Positions 35,609 through 49,965 of a stretch of DNA of 64,000 bases are shown here, piece by piece. The notes under the pieces were generated by a model that saw only the letters and a program-made list of their open reading frames with translations, made no database searches and had not been told where the DNA came from. How positions within the stretch are numbered: position 1 is the first letter of the stretch; every line of letters begins with the position of its first letter. The position numbers and the translations under genes are program-made. The DNA lies in assembly GCA_963718615.1 (NCBI GenBank), contig OY970368.1:4000001-4064000 (forward strand), given 5' to 3'. Source of the DNA: an uncultured cyanobacterium. Its GTDB lineage: Bacteria; Cyanobacteriota; Cyanobacteriia; PCC-9006; JAAUQQ01.

Positions 35609-35833
35609 TTAAACCAAACGTTCTTTTATTCGAAATTCATCAAAAATTAAGCCAGATCTGGCTTGCGGCGTCTGGGCGATCGCCGCAGAGGATGCTATCC
35701 TAATCCTGCAAATTGCCGCTCCTGCCCAGCATCGGTAATCCTACGGCGTCAATCCCTAGGCTTGCCATCCCCCAGGAATGTGCTAAAACCGATCCAATGT
35801 GTCCAACTTTGGGCGCAAGTATCTGGAAAACCT

Positions 35834-36568
35834 ATGAGCGAGACGACGGCATTTTTAGCGGGTACTGCGGTAGCAGGAATCTCAGCCCTTCTCTTATTGA
35901 AGGGTGGATTTGGCTTGGGTCAACCGTCGTCCCCCTATGGCTTGACCCCGGCCCAGCCGACGCCTCTGCCCCCAGCCCTGAGCACAGCGCCAGCACCAGC
36001 GACAGCCCCAACCCCCTCCGATCCTTGGGGACAAAATCAGAACGAATTGCTGCGATCGCAGCTCGAACAACAAAAGACGCTCACCGGCCAACTCCGCTCT
36101 CAGCTCGATCAACAGGAGTCCATGACCGAGCAATTGCGGTCTCAGCTAGAGCAGCAGCGCAACCAGACCGATCGCGTCGTGGCTCAGCTCCAGGATCAAC
36201 AGCGTTCGGTCGATCGCCTCTCGATTCAGCAGGGGCTCCCCAATGGCGGCATGCCCGGCGGCGCAGTCCTGGCGCAGAATAACCAAACCTCGCCCCAGGT
36301 GGTTTTGCTGTGGGCCATGGGGGGCGTCTTTTTGTTGGTCATTATTGGCGGTGGCATCCTCCTACTCGTGGTGGTGGTCCTAGCCAGTCAGCAACAGCCC
36401 CGGCGGCAGCGGCCCCCTCAGCCTTACATGCTCCATTCCCAGGGGATGCCAGAACCTCCCTATTACCCGTCCTACCCCCCCCAGCGTCCCCGTCAACAGC
36501 AACCGCCAACGACCTATGTGTTGCCTCAGCGCAGTGTCCGACGGGTAGATTCCTACGATTCTTATTAA
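35834..36568 (+). CDS. PatN-like membrane protein (hydrophobic N-terminus, Gln-rich coiled coil, TM helix, Pro-rich tail)
   Basis: MSETTAFLAGTAVAGISALLLLKG N-terminus and domain order match the described PatN architecture; orthology not verified. Confidence 0.6.
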   Translation: MSETTAFLAGTAVAGISALLLLKGGFGLGQPSSPYGLTPAQPTPLPPALSTAPAPATAPTPSDPWGQNQNELLRSQLEQQKTLTGQLRSQLDQQESMTEQLRSQLEQQRNQTDRVVAQLQDQQRSVDRLSIQQGLPNGGMPGGAVLAQNNQTSPQVVLLWAMGGVFLLVIIGGGILLLVVVVLASQQQPRRQRPPQPYMLHSQGMPEPPYYPSYPPQRPRQQQPPTTYVLPQRSVRRVDSYDSY

Positions 36569-38906: not shown

Positions 38907-39356
38907 ATGACGCTGGATTCTCCGCAACCCGCCTCCGCCGGAACCGCAACCCTAAGCCGTACTGCCCAGCGCAGCGTCGCACCGGGCCTAGAGACGTCTC
39001 GTGCTGCCACTGCCCCCCGGCCCGATTGGCAGCCTGCCCTAGAGCTCCAAGAAACTGCTGATCGGATCTATGTGCAACTGCAACTACCGGGCTTTTGTCG
39101 AGAAGCAATCGAGATTCAGGCAACCCCCACCGATGTCATGGTCCGGGGAGCTCATTTTTCAGCCTATGGTTCCTCGAAAGGCTGCGTGCTGGCTTCAGAA
39201 TTTCACTACGGTCCGTTTGAACGGGTGATTTTGTTGCCCACTCGCATTGACCCGCAGCATAGCCAAGCGGACTTTCACCAGGGATTATTAACTTTGACGC
39301 TGACCAAAGCTACAGCCAAAGTGACAGCCAAAGTGACAGCCAAAGCGACGGCCTAA
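38907..39356 (+). CDS. Hsp20/alpha-crystallin small heat-shock protein
   Basis: WQPALELQET..LPG..SEFHYGPFERVILLP..GLLTLTL. Confidence 0.85.
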   Translation: MTLDSPQPASAGTATLSRTAQRSVAPGLETSRAATAPRPDWQPALELQETADRIYVQLQLPGFCREAIEIQATPTDVMVRGAHFSAYGSSKGCVLASEFHYGPFERVILLPTRIDPQHSQADFHQGLLTLTLTKATAKVTAKVTAKATA

Positions 39357-39387
39357 CCCAGTCAGCGCCTCACAAAATATTAGCCGC

Positions 39388-39678
39388 CTAGGCCAAGGTC
39401 GCTGTTGTGAAGCCACGCTCGCTGCCCCGATAGGTTGCAACGGTAGCGCGGCCCGTACCCCGATGACCCGCCAGGGTGGTCTGTGCTCTGCCGGTACCTC
39501 GGTAAGCCACGGTTTGTTCTGCTTGTTTTGCTTCGACCCGGCCCGTGCCACGATAGGCGAGGGTCGGGTTTTTGTCAGCAGCGGTGTTGATCGAGGAGTT
39601 GATCGAAAAACTGAGGGGAGTGGCGATCGCCAAAACAGCGAGAACAGCGACACGGGTTTGAAGGGTAGAAAACATCAT
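39388..39678 (-). CDS. PatX-like secreted peptide precursor with four RG(T/S)xR cores
   Basis: Signal peptide, then YRGTGR, YRGTGR, HRGTGR, YRGSER encoded by different synonymous codons; AAGGA ribosome-binding site. Confidence 0.8.
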   Translation of the reverse strand: MMFSTLQTRVAVLAVLAIATPLSFSINSSINTAADKNPTLAYRGTGRVEAKQAEQTVAYRGTGRAQTTLAGHRGTGRATVATYRGSERGFTTATLA

Positions 39679-40169
39679 GATTATCCTTGCAGGGTTGGTT
39701 GATTTGCTTGTTTGACTTGCTTGTGGAGATCTACAAAACCCCGCCACTTTCTACGCACTGCACTGAAAATTTGATGTCGATTAAAAAATTGTTCTAAGGG
39801 TGATTCTTTCAGTGAAATTTTCGACGGTACCGAAAGTTGTCTAGGACAAATCACCTAGATATGATGTCTGTCTCCTAGGAAATTTCAGGAAAGATCAAGG
39901 GGAAACCCACCTACCCCCCGAGGAAAGCTGGGGACAGCTCACAGACTGGCTCTCGCCCCCGATCGCTTCATCCGATATCTGGGGAACGCTAAAACCAGAC
40001 CTAGCCATTTCTGTTTCTGTTGACAGGTTTTTTTGCTATGGCTTCTTTCCTGAAGCTTCCCTGCGAACCGTTGGCTTGGGGCGATCGCTCTACCAGAAAT
40101 CTCCGCAGTGCTCCGCCTATACCCGAAGGGTTAGGGGGTGGTGAAGCGGAGCGCGACCGCAGGAAGCAA

Positions 40170-40583
40170 CTAATCAATCTCGGCCTGCTGTTGAATATAT
40201 TGCCTGAGAACAGATATAGGGGCTCCGCCACAAGAAATAATGCAGTAGGAACGACTCCAAAAGATCGGCTTATCTCGGTAGATCTGATTAAGGTGTTCAC
40301 CAAACTCTTTCCTGATTAACCGACTAGAGACAGTTTTTAAGTTGTTCACCAACTTTGACGGCTGAACCTTGGGATTGATCGAGATAAGAAGATGAACATG
40401 GTCAGCCTCCCCATTAAACTCAAGCAGGTTGCCATCCCACTTAACGAGCGTCTGCGCGAATATCTCTCGCATTCTGTCCAGCATGGGTTTTGTGATGCAC
40501 TTTCGTCGGTACTTAGTGCAAGCGACTAAGTGGAATTGAAGATTATAGGAGCAGTGGTGGAGTGTATTTAACGGTTGCGACAT
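40170..40583 (-). CDS. tnpA: IS200-family Y1 (HUH) transposase TnpA
   Basis: FHLVACTKYRR, EADHVHLL (HUH), FWSRSY, YIQQQ catalytic Tyr. Confidence 0.95.
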   Translation of the reverse strand: MSQPLNTLHHCSYNLQFHLVACTKYRRKCITKPMLDRMREIFAQTLVKWDGNLLEFNGEADHVHLLISINPKVQPSKLVNNLKTVSSRLIRKEFGEHLNQIYRDKPIFWSRSYCIISCGGAPISVLRQYIQQQAEID

Positions 40584-40610
40584 TGTAGGCGACTAAGCTA
40601 GAATAAGACC

Positions 40611-41798
40611 ATGCTAACACTGACCTATGAGTACAAACTGAAGCCAACCGCTCAGCAGATTGAGGAGCTAGAAAATAGCTTGGATGTTTGCCGAAAAGTC
40701 TGGAATTATGCCCTGAAAGAGCGCAAGGACTGGATTGCTTCAAGAAAGTGTCCTATCAATGCTTGCTCAATTCGGGGTGAGTACATCATGGCGGCGGATG
40801 CTCCCTATCCCGGTTTTGCTCACCAGTGCAAATCCCTGACCCAAGCCAAGAAGACTAATCCTGACCTCAAGTCTGTCAATGCTCAATCCCTTCAGCAAGT
40901 GCTGAAGACTTTAGAAAAAGCATTCAAGGATAAGGCAGAACGGGGGTTTGGGTTTCCTCGGTTTAAGAAGTCGGGGCAAATGAAGTCGTTTCTGTTTCCT
41001 CAATTGGGTAAGACTCCACTGGGAGACGGGTGGGTAAATCTTCCCAGTATTGGGAAAACTGCTATCCGGCAGTCTCGGCCCTATCCCGAAGGCTTCCAGG
41101 TGAAGCAGGCCAGGATAGTGAAGCGGGCGTCAGGGTTTTATGTGGTGCTCTGTTTTCAAGCGGAGTTGTCCATTCCCGATGTGCCATTGGTAGGTCAGTG
41201 TGTGGGTGTCGATGTAGGGTTGGAATATTTCCTGTCAGCCTCGGATGGCTTGCAAGTTCATTGTCCTCGGTTTTTCGTTGACCTGCAAAGCGAGCTGAAA
41301 TTGCTGCAACGCCGGTTGAAGAAAAAGGTGCTGGGGTCGAAGAACTGGAAAAAACTTCAACTCAAGATCGCAAAGCTGCATGAACGAATCAGCCACACTC
41401 GCAAGGATTTTCACTTCAAGATTGCTCATCTGCTCTGTGACCGGGGCGATGTGATTGCGGTGGAGAATCTGAATCTAGTGGGCTTGTCCCGTGGCATGTT
41501 GGGTAAACACATGCTCGATGCTGGATTGGGACAGTTCCTGAATCAGATTTTGCCTTGGGTTTGCTTCAAGCGAGGGAAGGGGTATCTGAAAGTGGATGCC
41601 CGTGGAACCTCTCAGCAATGTCCTGATTGTGGTCATGCTGTCAAAAAGCAGCTTTCAGACCGTTGGCATAGTTGTGCCCATTGCGGGTCATCAATGCCTC
41701 GGGATATTGCCAGCGCGATTGTGATTAAGCAAAGGGCCGTGGGGCGCACGGTTCAAGAAAAGGCTTGTGGAGACGGTCTAGCGGGGGTGGCGGCATGA
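40611..41798 (+). CDS. tnpB: RNA-guided endonuclease TnpB
   Basis: HTH N-terminus; RuvC-I GVDVG, RuvC-II VENL, zinc finger CPDC/CAHC, RuvC-III RDIASA; all catalytic residues present. Confidence 0.95.
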   Translation: MLTLTYEYKLKPTAQQIEELENSLDVCRKVWNYALKERKDWIASRKCPINACSIRGEYIMAADAPYPGFAHQCKSLTQAKKTNPDLKSVNAQSLQQVLKTLEKAFKDKAERGFGFPRFKKSGQMKSFLFPQLGKTPLGDGWVNLPSIGKTAIRQSRPYPEGFQVKQARIVKRASGFYVVLCFQAELSIPDVPLVGQCVGVDVGLEYFLSASDGLQVHCPRFFVDLQSELKLLQRRLKKKVLGSKNWKKLQLKIAKLHERISHTRKDFHFKIAHLLCDRGDVIAVENLNLVGLSRGMLGKHMLDAGLGQFLNQILPWVCFKRGKGYLKVDARGTSQQCPDCGHAVKKQLSDRWHSCAHCGSSMPRDIASAIVIKQRAVGRTVQEKACGDGLAGVAA

Positions 41799-44870: not shown

Positions 44871-47789
44871 ATGTTTGAACCCTTTGGCTATCTGGCTCAC
44901 CGCCAATTCCCTACCCCAGACCTACAGTGGCAAATGGAGCAGGACATCAACCATGGGGATATTTTGCTCAAACTGTCTGATTGGGCCACCCAGGCAGCAG
45001 AACAGTCTACAACGCATCCAGATGACATTAACCTAGCGACCATTCTACAAGCTGCCCAAGAAATCTCGGGGCTCCTCGAATGGAACGAGCTAGCTGAGCG
45101 GGTGAGTCAACAGATTCAGTTTCTGGCTCAAGCAGACCGCTTATTTCTGATCTTACCGAGTGAAATTCAAGCCGTTGCAGAGCAATCATCGCAAACTGAA
45201 TTAGACCTTCCCATCCATTGGATTGAGCAGGTCCAACGAACGAGACAAGCCGTTTACCTGTCTGGCTTTTCCGCAGAGGCTGCAAGTCTAGATCCAGATC
45301 ATTGGGCTACCCATTCTCCCCAATCATGCTTCTGTGTGCCCCTGCTCCATCAGGGGCAATGTTTTGGGAGTATTTACCTCGAATCTGATCATTCCCTAGG
45401 GTTGACGGAGGAGAGTCAGATCCTCATCCAATTTCTCTGTACTCAGGCGGCGATCGCCTTCAGTAATGCGCAGCAATACGAGCGAGTCAAAACTGAGACA
45501 GCAAGGCTAGAACATATCAACAGTTTGATTCGAGCCCAGCAAGATGCCGAGCTAGACGGTATTTTAGCCGTCGATGAAAACTATCGGTTTATTAGCTGCA
45601 ATCGCCGATTTCAGGAACTTTGGGGTATCCCAGAAGAGATTTTCCAATCTCAAGAGACCGATCGCATCAGACAATGGGTTTATGAGCAGGTCGAAGAACT
45701 GCCCAGCTTTGTTGCAAGAATTCAAGAACTTTACAGTAATCCAGGCTTTAAAGCACATGAGGAAGTTCGGCTCAAAGATGGTCGAGTATTTGAGCGATAT
45801 TCAAGCCCGATCCTATCTGAGAAAGGTGAGTTTTGGGGACAGATTTGGTGTTTTCGGGATGTCAGCGAGCATAAAGCCATAGAACAACAGCTTTACCAAT
45901 CTCAGCAACTGCTACAGCTTGTCCTGGATACGATTCCCCAGCAAGTTTGTTGGAAGGATAACAATTCTGTCTATCTCGGTTGCAATCAGGCTTTTGCCAC
46001 GATGGCAGGGCTAGAGTCTTCCAAACAGATTATGGGTAAGACGGATTACGATTTACCTTGGAAACCGCAGGAATCAGAGTTTTTCATAGACTGCGATTGT
46101 CGTGTGATGACCAGCGGCCAAGCTGAGCTCGGCATTATAGAACCACTCCTGACAGGAGAAGGCGAACAAATTTGGCTAGAAACTAATAAGTCTCCTCTTA
46201 GAGACCATTGCGGTGATGTAAAAGGGATTTTAGTCACCATTCAAGATATTACATCCCAGAAAAAAGCAGAGCAAACCCTGCAGCGAATCAATGAAGAATT
46301 AGAAGAACGAGTATCTCAGCGGACGGCTGCATTGGCCGCGATGAATCAGGCACTGGCAGAAGCAAAAATAGCGGCTGATAACGCAAGCCAAGCTAAGAGC
46401 GAATTTCTGGCTAATATGAGTCATGAACTGAGAACTCCTCTAAATGGCATTTTGGGTTATGCACAGATTTTATATCGATCTAGTGATGTTACAGCCAGAT
46501 CAAAAGAGGGCATTACTGTGATTCAGCGATGTGGCGAACATTTACTTCAGTTAATTAATGATATATTGGATCTATCTAAAATTGAGGCTCGTAAGCTTGA
46601 TTTAATCCTCGCTCCTACCCATTTTCCCTCATTTCTTCAGGAAATTGTTGAGATCTGTCGAGTCCGTGCCGATCAAAAGAATATTCAATTTTATTATCAG
46701 CCAGATCCGAGCCTTTCCCATGGACTGGAAATTGATGAAAAACGTCTACGGCAGGTTTTAATTAACATTATCGGAAATGCTATCAAATTTACCGATCATG
46801 GACGTGTTACCTTTGCAATCAAAAAACTTGAGTCCAATCTAGACCCCCATCAAGTCCGTTTAAGATTTAGTGTGTACGATACAGGCGTTGGCATCTCTAC
46901 TGAAAACTTAGGTCGTCTTTTCCATGCCTTTGAGCAGGTCAGTGAGGGCCGGCATCAGATTGAAGGGACAGGCCTAGGGCTTGCAATTAGTCAGAGACTT
47001 GTTACCCTCATGGGAGGTGTGATTCAAGTTGAAAGCCAACTCAATCAGGGCAGCCATTTCTTTTTCGAATTAGCGTTTTTTACTTCGGATGCGTGCTCAG
47101 TTGACAGCCAATCATCCAGTGAAAATATTTCAGGCTATCGGGGTCCGCGCCGCCATATTTTGGTGGTGGATGATCGTCGGGAAAATCGAGATGTGATCAA
47201 GCAGCTTCTGGGAAATATAGGCTTTACAGTGACTGAAGCGGAACAGGGCCAAGAGGCGCTCGAAAAAATGCAACATCATTTGCCGGATCTGGTAATTATG
47301 GATTTATGTATGCCTGTACTTGATGGCTATGCCTTTCTAAAAGTAGTACGCAATCACGAGAAGTTTTCTTCTATCCCCGTTATTATCTCTTCCGCTTCAG
47401 TTGGCGAAGCAAACCGGCAAAACAGTATACAAGCAGAGGACAATAATTTTCTAAGTAAACCGATTCGCTTAGACGAGTTGTTGATTGTGTTGCAAAGCCA
47501 TTTATCTCTGACCTGGCATTACAAAGATGATTGCAAAGATTCATCCCCCCCCTTGGCACCACCAACGAATCCTCAGCAACCCTCGGATCTTCCATCCCAA
47601 GATAATTTACAACTGTTGTTTGAGTTGATTAGCCGGGGAAGAATTAAAAAGTTTAATGAGTTTTTGGAGGAACTCCGTTCTCAAAATTTAGGCCATGCTG
47701 AATTTCTCGATCGCCTACGGTTTTTTAGTCGACGATTTGAACTAGAGAAAATTGAGAGTTTGCTGCAAGAATATCTAATAAAGTCCTAA
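44871..47789 (+). CDS. Hybrid sensor histidine kinase (GAF-PAS-PAS-HisKA-HATPase-REC)
   Basis: KSEFLANMSHELRTPLNGILG, GNAIKFT, DTGVG, GTGLGLAIS; receiver VVDD..DLCMP..SKP. Confidence 0.93.
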   Translation: MFEPFGYLAHRQFPTPDLQWQMEQDINHGDILLKLSDWATQAAEQSTTHPDDINLATILQAAQEISGLLEWNELAERVSQQIQFLAQADRLFLILPSEIQAVAEQSSQTELDLPIHWIEQVQRTRQAVYLSGFSAEAASLDPDHWATHSPQSCFCVPLLHQGQCFGSIYLESDHSLGLTEESQILIQFLCTQAAIAFSNAQQYERVKTETARLEHINSLIRAQQDAELDGILAVDENYRFISCNRRFQELWGIPEEIFQSQETDRIRQWVYEQVEELPSFVARIQELYSNPGFKAHEEVRLKDGRVFERYSSPILSEKGEFWGQIWCFRDVSEHKAIEQQLYQSQQLLQLVLDTIPQQVCWKDNNSVYLGCNQAFATMAGLESSKQIMGKTDYDLPWKPQESEFFIDCDCRVMTSGQAELGIIEPLLTGEGEQIWLETNKSPLRDHCGDVKGILVTIQDITSQKKAEQTLQRINEELEERVSQRTAALAAMNQALAEAKIAADNASQAKSEFLANMSHELRTPLNGILGYAQILYRSSDVTARSKEGITVIQRCGEHLLQLINDILDLSKIEARKLDLILAPTHFPSFLQEIVEICRVRADQKNIQFYYQPDPSLSHGLEIDEKRLRQVLINIIGNAIKFTDHGRVTFAIKKLESNLDPHQVRLRFSVYDTGVGISTENLGRLFHAFEQVSEGRHQIEGTGLGLAISQRLVTLMGGVIQVESQLNQGSHFFFELAFFTSDACSVDSQSSSENISGYRGPRRHILVVDDRRENRDVIKQLLGNIGFTVTEAEQGQEALEKMQHHLPDLVIMDLCMPVLDGYAFLKVVRNHEKFSSIPVIISSASVGEANRQNSIQAEDNNFLSKPIRLDELLIVLQSHLSLTWHYKDDCKDSSPPLAPPTNPQQPSDLPSQDNLQLLFELISRGRIKKFNEFLEELRSQNLGHAEFLDRLRFFSRRFELEKIESLLQEYLIKS

Positions 47790-47874
47790 GCCTGTCCTGC
47801 TGCCTTTTAAGCCTTAGTAGGACAATCATGCACTCGAATCAGCGAAGAATAAACACCTCATTTGCTTTAAGATT

Positions 47875-49965
47875 ATGGCTTACTCTACTCAGGGACTAAT
47901 TTTAATTGTTGACGATACACCTGCAAATTTAAATGTAATTTCAGAAACCTTGGCCGATGCAGGATTTGAAACTGCGATCGCCACCAGCGGAGAGCGAGCC
48001 CTGCTACAGATTCAACGGGATCAGCCCGATCTAATTCTTTTAGATATTATGATGCCTGGGATTAATGGGTTTGAGACCTGTCGTCGCCTAAAGGCTGATC
48101 CGCGTTTTAGCCGAATTCCGATTATTTTTATGACGGCTTTGGCGGATATCAATAGTAAAGTGGAGGGCTTAGAAGCTGGAGCCGTTGACTATATTACTAA
48201 GCCGTTTCAAGAACAGGAAGTTTTGGCTCGGGTTAAGATCCATTTGGAGCTTAAACGTACCCAGGATCAATTGCGGCAAAGCGAAGAACGGCTGGATAGT
48301 ATTATCAGCGCCTTGGAGGAAGTGGTCTTTTCTGCTTTTTTGGAACCGCTAGAGTTTTCCTATCTTAATCCTGTTACTGAGCGGGTTTTAGGGCACCATC
48401 CTGATGTTTTTTTCGTAGATCCTCACCTTTGGTCTCGATTAGTTCATCCTGAAGATCGCGATAGAGTTCAACAGTTGTTGAGTCAGCTAGAAAATAATAA
48501 ATTTTTAGACTTTGAATATCGAATTCTGAATGACTCTGGAGAAACTCGCTGGCTTCATTGCCGTGCTCAGATTCGGTTTCAGGTTGCGGATGAACGCTTT
48601 AGACTTGATGGAATTGTTCATGACATTAGCGATCGCAAACAAGCAGAGCATGAATTGCGCTACACGGCTCAGCACGATAGCTTGACGGGGCTAGCCAATC
48701 GGGCGTATTTTATGGAGCAATTAAATGATGTCCTCCAGTATCCTCGTCAGCGAAAAAGTGATCAATTTGCTATCTTATTTATTGATCTCGATCGTTTTAA
48801 AACCGTTAATGATAGTTTAGGACATCTCTGTGGTGATCAATTATTAATTCAGGTGAGTGAAGTTCTTAAAGACTCCATTCGTCCCTCCGATATCGTTGCT
48901 CGTCTAGGCGGAGATGAGTTTACTATTTTACTCAAGAATATTCATGAATCTCGCGAAGCAGTAACCATTAGCGATCGTATTCAAGAGCAACTCCGAGAAC
49001 CATTTTGCCTAGAGGAACAAAATGTATTTGTTAGTGCGAGTATCGGAATTGTTCTAGACTCTGAAAAGTATCAAAGCGCAGACGAGTTACTCCGTGATGC
49101 TGATATCGCGATGTATCAGGCAAAAAATCTAGGCAAGGCTTGTCATCAGCTCTTTAGCGAAGAGATGTATAAACAGGCTATTCAAAAACTCACGCTAGAA
49201 AATGAGCTGCGATTGGCAATTGATCGTCAAGAATTTGTCTTGCATTATCAGCCGATCAAAAAACTATTAAGCAACAAAGTTACGGGATTTGAGGCTTTAG
49301 TACGCTGGAACCATCCGGGTCGAGGCTTTATCCCACCCAATGCGTTTATTCCTTTAGCAGAAGAAACAGGGCTCATTATTCCACTGGGTGAGTACATCTT
49401 GCGAGAAGCCTGTTTGCAAATGAGCCGCTGGCGAGCTCAGTATCCAGCGGTTGATCATTTGGTGATGAGTGTTAACCTATCGAGTAAGCAACTACAACTT
49501 CCTAACTTTCTAGAGATTTTGGAGAATATTGTTGCTGAGACTAATCTTCAGCCTGCCAACTTAAAATTGGAAATTACAGAAAGTCTATTGATGGATAATA
49601 GTGATGCGACATTACAACTTTTACAAGAGCTACAAAAACGGGGATTCCAACTCAGTCTAGATGACTTTGGCACAGGCTATTCTTCCTTGAGCTATCTCCA
49701 TCGATTTCCTATTAATACCCTCAAAATTGATCGCTCGTTTGTCAAAACCATGGAGCCGGGATTAACCAGCTTCGAAATTGTTCGCACGATTACGGCTTTG
49801 GCTCGAACTTTAAAACTCAACGTTGTCGCTGAGGGGGTGGAGACGGCTGAACAGGCAGAATATCTTAAGTCGCTTGATTGTGATATGGTTCAAGGCTACT
49901 TCTTTTCCAAGCCTCTAGGGATTGAAGATGCAACTCGCTGGCTGGAGGAAGAATTACAAAATTAA
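47875..49965 (+). CDS. REC-PAS-GGDEF-EAL diguanylate cyclase/phosphodiesterase
   Basis: Receiver IVDD..LDIMMP..KP; RLGGDEF; FEALVRW; DDFGTGYSSL; VAEGVE. Confidence 0.95.
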   Translation: MAYSTQGLILIVDDTPANLNVISETLADAGFETAIATSGERALLQIQRDQPDLILLDIMMPGINGFETCRRLKADPRFSRIPIIFMTALADINSKVEGLEAGAVDYITKPFQEQEVLARVKIHLELKRTQDQLRQSEERLDSIISALEEVVFSAFLEPLEFSYLNPVTERVLGHHPDVFFVDPHLWSRLVHPEDRDRVQQLLSQLENNKFLDFEYRILNDSGETRWLHCRAQIRFQVADERFRLDGIVHDISDRKQAEHELRYTAQHDSLTGLANRAYFMEQLNDVLQYPRQRKSDQFAILFIDLDRFKTVNDSLGHLCGDQLLIQVSEVLKDSIRPSDIVARLGGDEFTILLKNIHESREAVTISDRIQEQLREPFCLEEQNVFVSASIGIVLDSEKYQSADELLRDADIAMYQAKNLGKACHQLFSEEMYKQAIQKLTLENELRLAIDRQEFVLHYQPIKKLLSNKVTGFEALVRWNHPGRGFIPPNAFIPLAEETGLIIPLGEYILREACLQMSRWRAQYPAVDHLVMSVNLSSKQLQLPNFLEILENIVAETNLQPANLKLEITESLLMDNSDATLQLLQELQKRGFQLSLDDFGTGYSSLSYLHRFPINTLKIDRSFVKTMEPGLTSFEIVRTITALARTLKLNVVAEGVETAEQAEYLKSLDCDMVQGYFFSKPLGIEDATRWLEEELQN

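Follow-up and report, generated by a model that had tools for sequence, protein, structure and literature searches.

Can one small exported protein carry several copies of the peptide core that acts on HetR, and, if it can, how would it relate to PatX, the peptide precursor encoded beside hetR? The question is raised by a 96-amino acid reading frame in a 64,000-nucleotide stretch of contig OY970368.1 (positions 4,000,001 to 4,064,000; assembly GCA_963718615.1) from an uncultured cyanobacterium of the GTDB lineage PCC-9006; JAAUQQ01. We refer to the whole stretch as the window and to the frame, which lies at 39388–39678 on its minus strand, as the window gene. The genome is assembled as one contig of 6,095,823 bp with 52.3% G+C. 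We consider the chances about evenly balanced that the window gene encodes an exported, multicopy PatX-like pro-peptide whose released hexapeptides act on HetR, all links of that chain being taken together.

Minus-strand translation and the listing of open reading frames give the 96-residue product as MMFSTLQTRVAVLAVLAIATPLSFSINSSINTAADKNPTLAYRGTGRVEAKQAEQTVAYRGTGRAQTTLAGHRGTGRATVATYRGSERGFTTATLA, with a TAG stop codon at 39388–39390; this coding sequence of a multicore PatX-like precursor is kept in relatives. The features that follow are likewise on the minus strand. An initial annotation of this DNA, made from its letters, had described the frame together with a ribosome-binding site and a CA-rich leader, and both are present: AAGGA (39684–39688) stands 5 nucleotides before the ATG, and the leader includes a 13-nucleotide repeat of 2.3 copies (39695–39724) that forms a 16-nucleotide insertion relative to the leaders of orthologues. 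The four cores that had been annotated were placed by script at the same coordinates. Core 1, YRGTGR (39538–39555; codons TAT CGT GGC ACG GGC CGG), follows PTLA; core 2, YRGTGR (39487–39504; TAC CGA GGT ACC GGC AGA), follows QTVA; core 3, HRGTGR (39448–39465; CAT CGG GGT ACG GGC CGC), follows TTLAG; and the variant core YRGSER (39415–39432) lies within a terminal unit, YRGSERGF (39409–39432), that is a separately conserved 8-mer of the gene family. The protein thus does hold several copies of the HetR-binding core, in the form of three RGTGR motifs, and the cores do differ in their synonymous codons, as had been claimed. Tandem Repeats Finder reported no DNA repeat of cassette period in the gene; its sole arrays there are a 9-nucleotide repeat of 2.2 copies at 39514–39533 and the 13-nucleotide repeat of the leader. 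A T-[LV]-A motif was said to precede each core: the motif is indeed found, but its spacing is inexact, with an extra residue at core 3 (TLA-G-H) and at the fourth core (TVA-T-Y).

Three occurrences of the core in one frame far exceed what chance would give. When the genome was scanned in all six frames, RG[ST]GR was found in 80 stop-to-stop frames, once in each of 79 and three times in the frame of the window gene only. Conservation argues in the same direction. A word-indexed search returned one relative (P0002) of 120 amino acids, with five RGTGR motifs and a YRGSERGF...NLA end, and a HMMER scan with the two-sequence profile against 1.84 billion representatives gave 43 proteins at E <= 0.001. 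Forty of the 43 were retrieved, P0018 (931 amino acids) and P0023 (496 amino acids) being left out. Three retrieved matches (P0006, P0034, and P0037) were rejected as unrelated repeat proteins; P0006, with 402 amino acids, about 20 NSSH[AEG]GT[GD]R repeats, and no signal peptide, was matched via its GTGR repeat and seems unrelated. The other relatives are of small size; they combine an uncharged stretch in the N-terminal part with several [YHWD]RG[ST]GR, YRASGR, or YRGSERG units. Among them, P0003, P0004, and P0005 are full-length orthologues that share the N-terminus, three to five cores, and the terminal YRGSERG...[LI]A, at 34–46% identity; the orthologues are 109–130 amino acids long and combine four or five RGTGR, or three RA[ST]GR, with the YRGSERG tail. 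The spacers between cores differ freely among them in length and sequence.

This conservation extends to the DNA before the genes. The upstream regions of three orthologues share a box, TT(T)ATCGACAYC, the blocks CGTA and TGTAG, and a ribosome-binding CAAGG, which is invariant in the three. In the window the box is TTTTAATCGACATC (39773–39787, minus strand), with ATCGACA at −103; it is shared with the orthologues, is not of the DIF1 type, and can be regarded as a candidate promoter or operator element. The reading of the frame as a real and conserved gene thus holds up, in that the orthologues share its cores, tail, ribosome-binding site, and upstream box, and on these sequence grounds we take the window frame to be a real gene. 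The contrary proposal, that it is a chance open frame, draws on its small size and the lack of a database name; full-length orthologues with conserved motifs, a ribosome-binding site, and the upstream box, together with its place as 1 of 80 motif-holding frames in the genome-wide count, make that proposal hardly credible, and we regard it as refuted by conservation.

The N-terminus of the window protein resembles a Sec-type signal. Residues 1–34 (39577–39678, minus strand) form the putative export signal region, assigned by hydropathy and the −3/−1 rule and conserved at the N-terminus of the orthologues: the n-region has R9, a hydrophobic core spans V10–L22 (with an 11-residue Kyte-Doolittle mean of 2.84 over residues 10–20), and small residues at −3/−1 place candidate signal-peptidase sites after S25 or A34. 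The exported look of the protein, which the initial annotation had pointed out, is borne out by these rules of thumb.

Among 134 instances of RG[ST]GR in 39 family proteins, position −2 is A in 83, position −1 is Y in 68 and H in 28, position +1 is I, V, or L in 115, and position +2 is E or D in 56. Such conserved flanks would fit release of [YH]RG[ST]GR hexapeptides, and the Ala before the core with the hydrophobic residue after it would fit defined cleavage sites. The 23 instances of R[GA]SE[RH] in the same 39 proteins have flanks of their own, with Y at −1 in 22, G at +1 in 22, V, L, I, or F at +2 in all 23, and no strong bias at −2. Because of these flank statistics, YRGSERG[VLIF] is a conserved unit in its own right and not a decayed core; RGSER, which had been listed as one variant, is thus not a sporadic one. 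The YRGSERGF unit might serve as a signal of its own or else govern processing or retention.

Known HetR-directed peptides suggest how these units might work. RGSGR/RGTGR is the only feature common to PatS, PatX, and HetN (PMC7761841). The cleft of the HetR hood domain takes a hexapeptide, with contacts to both arginines, the serine, and the free N-terminus of the peptide, and should have no room for longer extensions at that end (PMC4649674). In Nostoc/Anabaena, PatX must be exported and is matured by the periplasmic peptidase PatP, and HRGTGR binds HetR with a dissociation constant of 88 nM and blocks its DNA binding (PMC12756182). Core 3 of the window gene is the same hexapeptide as this HetR-binding PatX product of Nostoc (PMC12756182), and inhibition through the HetR cleft has been shown for HRGTGR and ERGSGR in Nostoc/Anabaena. 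By extension, the N-terminal signal of the window protein would direct it through the Sec pathway into the periplasm. The mature chain of some 60–70 residues, of low complexity and probably unfolded, would present three [YH]RGTGR cores after Ala or Ala-Gly, then YRGSERGF. Periplasmic proteolysis on both sides of the cores, as PatP performs for Nostoc PatX, would yield several RGTGR products of hexapeptide size, and these would move along the filament, enter cells, fill the cleft of the HetR hood domain, and lower DNA binding. For the window protein we infer each of these links: export, cleavage sites, release, uptake, and HetR binding.

The same region of the protein can be read in two quite different ways. 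The mature part is rich in Thr, Ala, Gly, and Arg, a scan of the window protein against a Pfam library lacking PF28278 gave no match, and the adjoining genes (hsp20, mnmE, aspS, and the IS200/IS605 element) include none for a processing enzyme or transporter, all of which would suit a small, disordered periplasmic or surface protein that stays uncut, its Arg-Gly repeats binding, for example, cell wall or sheath polymers and its likeness to PatS and PatX reflecting descent without signaling. We think this quite unlikely, for selection acts on the exact hexamer and its flanks and not on composition, as the different codons and the strong flank bias indicate, and the free variation of the spacers among orthologues is what would be expected for a string of excised peptides. 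Repeated aromatic-X-X units also resemble multicore precursors of ribosomally synthesized and posttranslationally modified peptides (RiPPs). The window protein could accordingly be imagined as the precursor of, for example, a repeat-bearing cyclophane or other radical S-adenosylmethionine (SAM)-modified peptide in which the aromatic-Arg-Gly units would be the modified sites, and one hetR-linked relative (L026) does match the NCBIfam model HaaA, at 13.6 bits. This score is far under the cut-off of 55, however; the N-terminus looks like a Sec signal and not a RiPP leader; and the genes beside the window gene or its orthologues (hsp20, mnmE, the IS element, dapB, and a coiled-coil gene) include none for a maturase, radical-SAM enzyme, or transporter. 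A RiPP origin is therefore very improbable.

A check for hetR was called for in the initial annotation. Two copies (PF03574, both above the cut-off) are present, at 6.007 Mb and 0.369 Mb, with the window gene at 4.039 Mb. We examined both loci (hetR1, 6005352–6008798; hetR2, 367836–371282). Alignment to solved HetR structures shows that HetR1 retains R223, E253, E254, D256, D270, and D278, the pocket residues being those that Hu et al. 2015 (PMC4649674) report as contacts, and that HetR2 retains five of the six, with E254 replaced by A; R223, E253, D256, D270, and D278 are invariant in an alignment of 11 HetR proteins. In a complex prediction, the HetR1 hood (residues 216–301, two copies, 11-row alignment) was combined with residues 36–96 of the window protein (5-row alignment); it scored 0.01 against a mark of 0.32, which counts neither for nor against binding. 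A 46-amino acid open reading frame, MNSRVFLQDACFAIAPALAPLAYPLLAHPLLAHPLQTALHRGSGRK (...HRGSGRK), lies 256 nucleotides upstream of hetR1 and has TCCTGA at −66; it is the canonical single-motif patX of this genome, the separate gene that had also been suggested for checking. No open reading frame of at least 30 amino acids with RG[ST]GR was found in the 1.28 kb before hetR2. Because a hetR-adjacent, single-motif patX exists, and because the window gene has neither a hetR neighbor nor a DIF1-type motif, the window gene is an extra relative of patX and not the patX of this genome.

How unusual a multicore precursor is could be judged from 401 genomes of the class, that of the window included, which were scanned at the DNA level with a degenerate pattern of two [YH]RG[ST]GR motifs 6–36 nucleotides apart. 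The pattern matched 17 genomes, all in three families, and its backward-read control matched 6. The matches comprise the genome of the window and 3 of the 7 others of its family, 8 of 39 genomes of a second family, and 5 of 39 of a third. Separately, a hit of a double-RGTGR pattern in another genome (G013, locus L006) was taken as chance, having no open reading frame of at least 40 amino acids in that frame. All 17 double-motif genomes have hetR, versus 211 of the 401. By tblastn, hetR lies directly downstream and on the same strand in 13 of 13 loci of the two other families, and in none of the loci of the window's own family. The 13 hetR-linked proteins, 61–121 amino acids long, carry three to eight [YH/D]RGSGR cores behind a signal peptide, and TCCTGA is found at −59 to −66 in all 13 genes. 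It follows from the position directly before hetR and from this TCCTGA that the 13 multicore genes are the local patX.

Multimotif proteins are thus common in nature, not rare. The multicore precursor had been presented as unusual, a view not borne out, since genes with three to eight cores hold the patX position in 13 of 13 motif-positive genomes outside the window's family. Relatives of one hetR-linked protein include those of Leptolyngbya cf. ectocarpi LEGE 11479 (six cores), Symploca sp. SIO2G7 (four), and Leptothoe kymatousa (five). Among 57 relatives, the 21 with a name are all called hypothetical or uncharacterized, and PF28278 is assigned to 2 of the 57. The LEGE 11479 protein, listed as "hypothetical protein IQ260_27710" (P0076), has 110 amino acids, six RGSGR, and a signal-like N-terminus. 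LEGE 11479 is cited (PMC12756182) as an example of a strain with patP and hetR but no patX. A six-core protein in a strain cited as patX-negative leads us to conclude that censuses based on cut-offs can miss multimotif genes.

The relation of the window protein to PatX (NF047413; PF28278; Nostoc/Anabaena PCC 7120) is one of likeness in the protein and difference in the gene. Like PatX, it is small, has an RG[ST]GR core and a hydrophobic N-terminus that looks like a Sec signal, and is encoded in a genome with hetR, and homologues of its repeat unit stand upstream of hetR elsewhere. Unlike PatX, which has one core, it has three and a YRGSERGF unit, and its gene lies away from hetR, lacks a DIF1-type motif at about −60, and shares its genome with a canonical patX. 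Elhai & Khudyakov (2018) reportedly took a hydrophobic N-terminus or Sec signal as a feature of PatX and are said to have found TCCGGA within 69 nucleotides upstream of patX. Published definitions ask for at least one RG[ST]GR (PMC7761841), of which the window protein has three as RGTGR, for a hydrophobic N-terminus or Sec signal (PMC12756182), and for a DIF1 promoter of patX (PMC7761841, PMC11298460). Under strict patX criteria, the window gene fails on promoter motif, hetR linkage, and curated hidden Markov model (HMM) score; a place upstream of or near hetR is usual for patX, perhaps without being required. The curated model appears narrow, because it does not match this genome's own hetR-linked patX either. 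In the ESM Atlas, PatX clusters are the nearest to the window protein (0.82 and 0.81), a weak lead. Judged by the homology of its units to the hetR-linked proteins, the window protein nonetheless belongs to a wider PatX-like repeat family.

The hetR-linked multimotif PatX proteins, and relatives of theirs such as IQ260_27710, share with it a signal-like N-terminus followed by repeats, which in their case are three to eight [A][YHD]RGSGR[IVL][ED]; in contrast to the window protein, they have RGSGR and no terminal YRGSERG, and their genes, where the context was seen, precede hetR and have TCCTGA at −59 to −66. PatS and HetN likewise have a core of the RGSGR type, the part bound by the HetR hood domain (PMC4649674, PMC7761841), but theirs is a single core, they lack a Sec signal, and their processing is believed to be cytoplasmic (PMC12756182). 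Our literature search found no description of multimotif PatX, unlinked PatX paralogues, or RASGR/RGSERG units; the founding PatX paper with its supplements and Table S3 of PMC12756182 were outside the scope of that search and may list multimotif PatX. Yeast α-factor and animal neuropeptide precursors carry several copies of a short signal per exported chain, separated by spacers, and are cut to release them. The proposed window protein would share with these precursors the multiple copies, and hence amplification per translation event, and differs in sequence, organism, and processing enzymes, so that the analogy is one of logic alone.

The genome holds a further relative. A wider motif scan revealed a second unlinked paralogue at 2,698,285–2,698,728 on the minus strand (locus L043, 4783–5205), of 140 amino acids and identical to P0019, whose motifs comprise one YRATGR, three YRASGR, and two YRGSERG. 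A DIF1 motif without mismatch, TCCGGA, stands at −65 to −60 relative to its ATG, and the paralogue is found a short way downstream of genes of the NifH and Oxidored_nitro families that resemble chlL/chlN. Profile matches occur in all eight genomes of the window's family, two to six in each, and hetR matches occur in six of the seven other genomes, five of which have two. Four types can be told apart. The first is the hetR-linked single-motif patX, sought and found in the genome of the window; the second comprises long paralogues of 140–172 amino acids with three to five RASGR and two or three YRGSERG, and in 5 of 5 of these genes TCCGGA stands at exactly −65; the third is that of the window gene, where the ATCGACA box is at −103, as against −90 in L049; and the fourth consists of short forms of 67–89 amino acids. 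The window gene belongs to a lineage-specific gene family with YRGSERG and RASGR as conserved units.

Several of these observations, and others, weigh against the proposal that the window peptides act on HetR. No hetR lies within 1.9 Mb of the window gene. There is no TCCGGA in the 3 kb around it and no DIF1-type motif at one mismatch or fewer between −130 and 0, and a single TCCTGA at −212 is not conserved in the orthologues. The window protein scores 12.5 bits (E 0.19) against the NCBIfam model heterocyst_PatX (NF047413), whose cut-off is 30. The association of the motif with hetR rests on three families and is weak as independent statistics. One orthologue, P0005, from the closest genus, has RA[ST]GR in all three cores, the others having G throughout, and the long paralogues of the window's family are mostly RASGR/RGSERG. 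The common target of the family may therefore be other than HetR, because binding of RASGR or RGSERG variants to HetR is nowhere shown in the work considered. Finally, deletion of patX in Leptolyngbya BL0902 had transcriptome effects described as "basically independent of HetR" (PMC11298460).

In the strongest alternative, the window protein is likewise a secreted multipeptide precursor, its peptides acting on a non-HetR receptor, such as a periplasmic or membrane sensor, or on one of the HetR paralogues, with an RGTGR/RASGR/RGSERG code of its own. A gene unlinked to hetR and under a different promoter, YRGSERG[VLIF] and YRASGR[FL] conserved as distinct units, the joint switch from G to A at the second position of every core in one orthologue, the presence of several paralogues in single genomes of the window's family, and the HetR-independent PatX effects in Leptolyngbya BL0902 (PMC11298460) would all be at home in it. 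Three of the cores are exact RGTGR, however, and one is the HRGTGR hexapeptide measured on HetR; the pocket is kept in both HetR paralogues; the unit architecture is that of the hetR-linked patX in other families; and the TCCGGA at −65 of the long RASGR paralogues (5 of 5) ties these to promoters of the HetR/HetZ regulon (PMC7377430). We therefore regard a separate receptor as possible, though on the whole unlikely. It is a more speculative and still less probable proposal that the expanded PatX family constitutes a combinatorial peptide code for multichannel signaling, with one type of unit (RG[ST]GR, RA[ST]GR, or YRGSERG) per precursor, different promoters (DIF1 or the ATCGACA box), and HetR paralogues differing at E254A. 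If this is true, then different precursors would address different HetR paralogues or other receptors, in a diazotrophic filament perhaps without heterocysts.

Should the window peptides act on HetR, as we consider an even prospect, the window gene would be a second or third source of HetR-directed peptides in the genome, with three inhibitors per chain. Inhibition of HetR would moreover be coupled to another input, because the gene is unlinked to hetR and its promoter is not of the DIF1 type. PatX and HetR are thought to be an ancient patterning pair of filamentous cyanobacteria. Their role outside heterocyst formers is described as still open (PMC11298460, PMC12756182). With PatX encoded as a multicopy precursor in many filamentous cyanobacteria, the stoichiometry in activator-inhibitor models changes, and HMM censuses with trusted cut-offs can miss multimotif patX genes. 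The unlinked paralogues with RGTGR, RASGR, and RGSERG are natural variants for probing recognition by HetR paralogues. What deserves attention is less the number of cores than this family of unlinked paralogues, with its different regulation and its variant cores.

Neither a HetR-type GGGN5CCC nor an NtcA-type GTAN8TAC motif is present in the 492 nucleotides upstream of the window gene, and a sigma-70 scan gave no convincing promoter there. A weak terminator-like hairpin with a T-run (39380–39396, minus strand), from a consensus scan only, overlaps the stop codon.

The neighbors of the window gene are hsp20, mnmE, a DUF2062 gene, aspS, and the IS200/IS605 element. In two relatives the orthologue is placed between dapB and the gene of a coiled-coil protein. 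In the window's genome these two genes are far apart: dapB, at 1.209 Mb, is not followed by a coiled-coil gene, the homologue of which is found at 2.981 Mb; the open reading frame at 35663–36568 was ruled out as the relatives' coiled-coil neighbor, being a different protein. Synteny with the relatives is broken and therefore gives no information on the function of the window gene. A nifD gene at 4,072,435 (region 4072435–4077511; 847 bits, above the cut-off) lies 8 kb past the end of the window and 33 kb from the gene, with weaker matches just downstream that are probably nifK and nifE/N; because nifD is present, we take the organism to be a diazotroph. Linkage of the window gene to the nif cluster was rejected, the intervening genes being housekeeping or signaling genes.

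Three further observations concern the surrounding DNA. The IS200/IS605 element (40170–41798), 0.5 kb upstream of the window gene, comprises tnpA on the minus strand and a tnpB/Cas12f-like gene on the plus strand. The convergent Hsp20-family gene (38907–39356, plus strand) ends in a 12-nucleotide repeat of 4.2 copies (39304–39353) encoding KATAKVTAKVTAKATA. Farther along, a cyclic di-GMP signaling pair is encoded at 44871–49965, its first member a hybrid histidine kinase with GAF, PAS, and receiver domains and its second a receiver-PAS-GGDEF-EAL protein.

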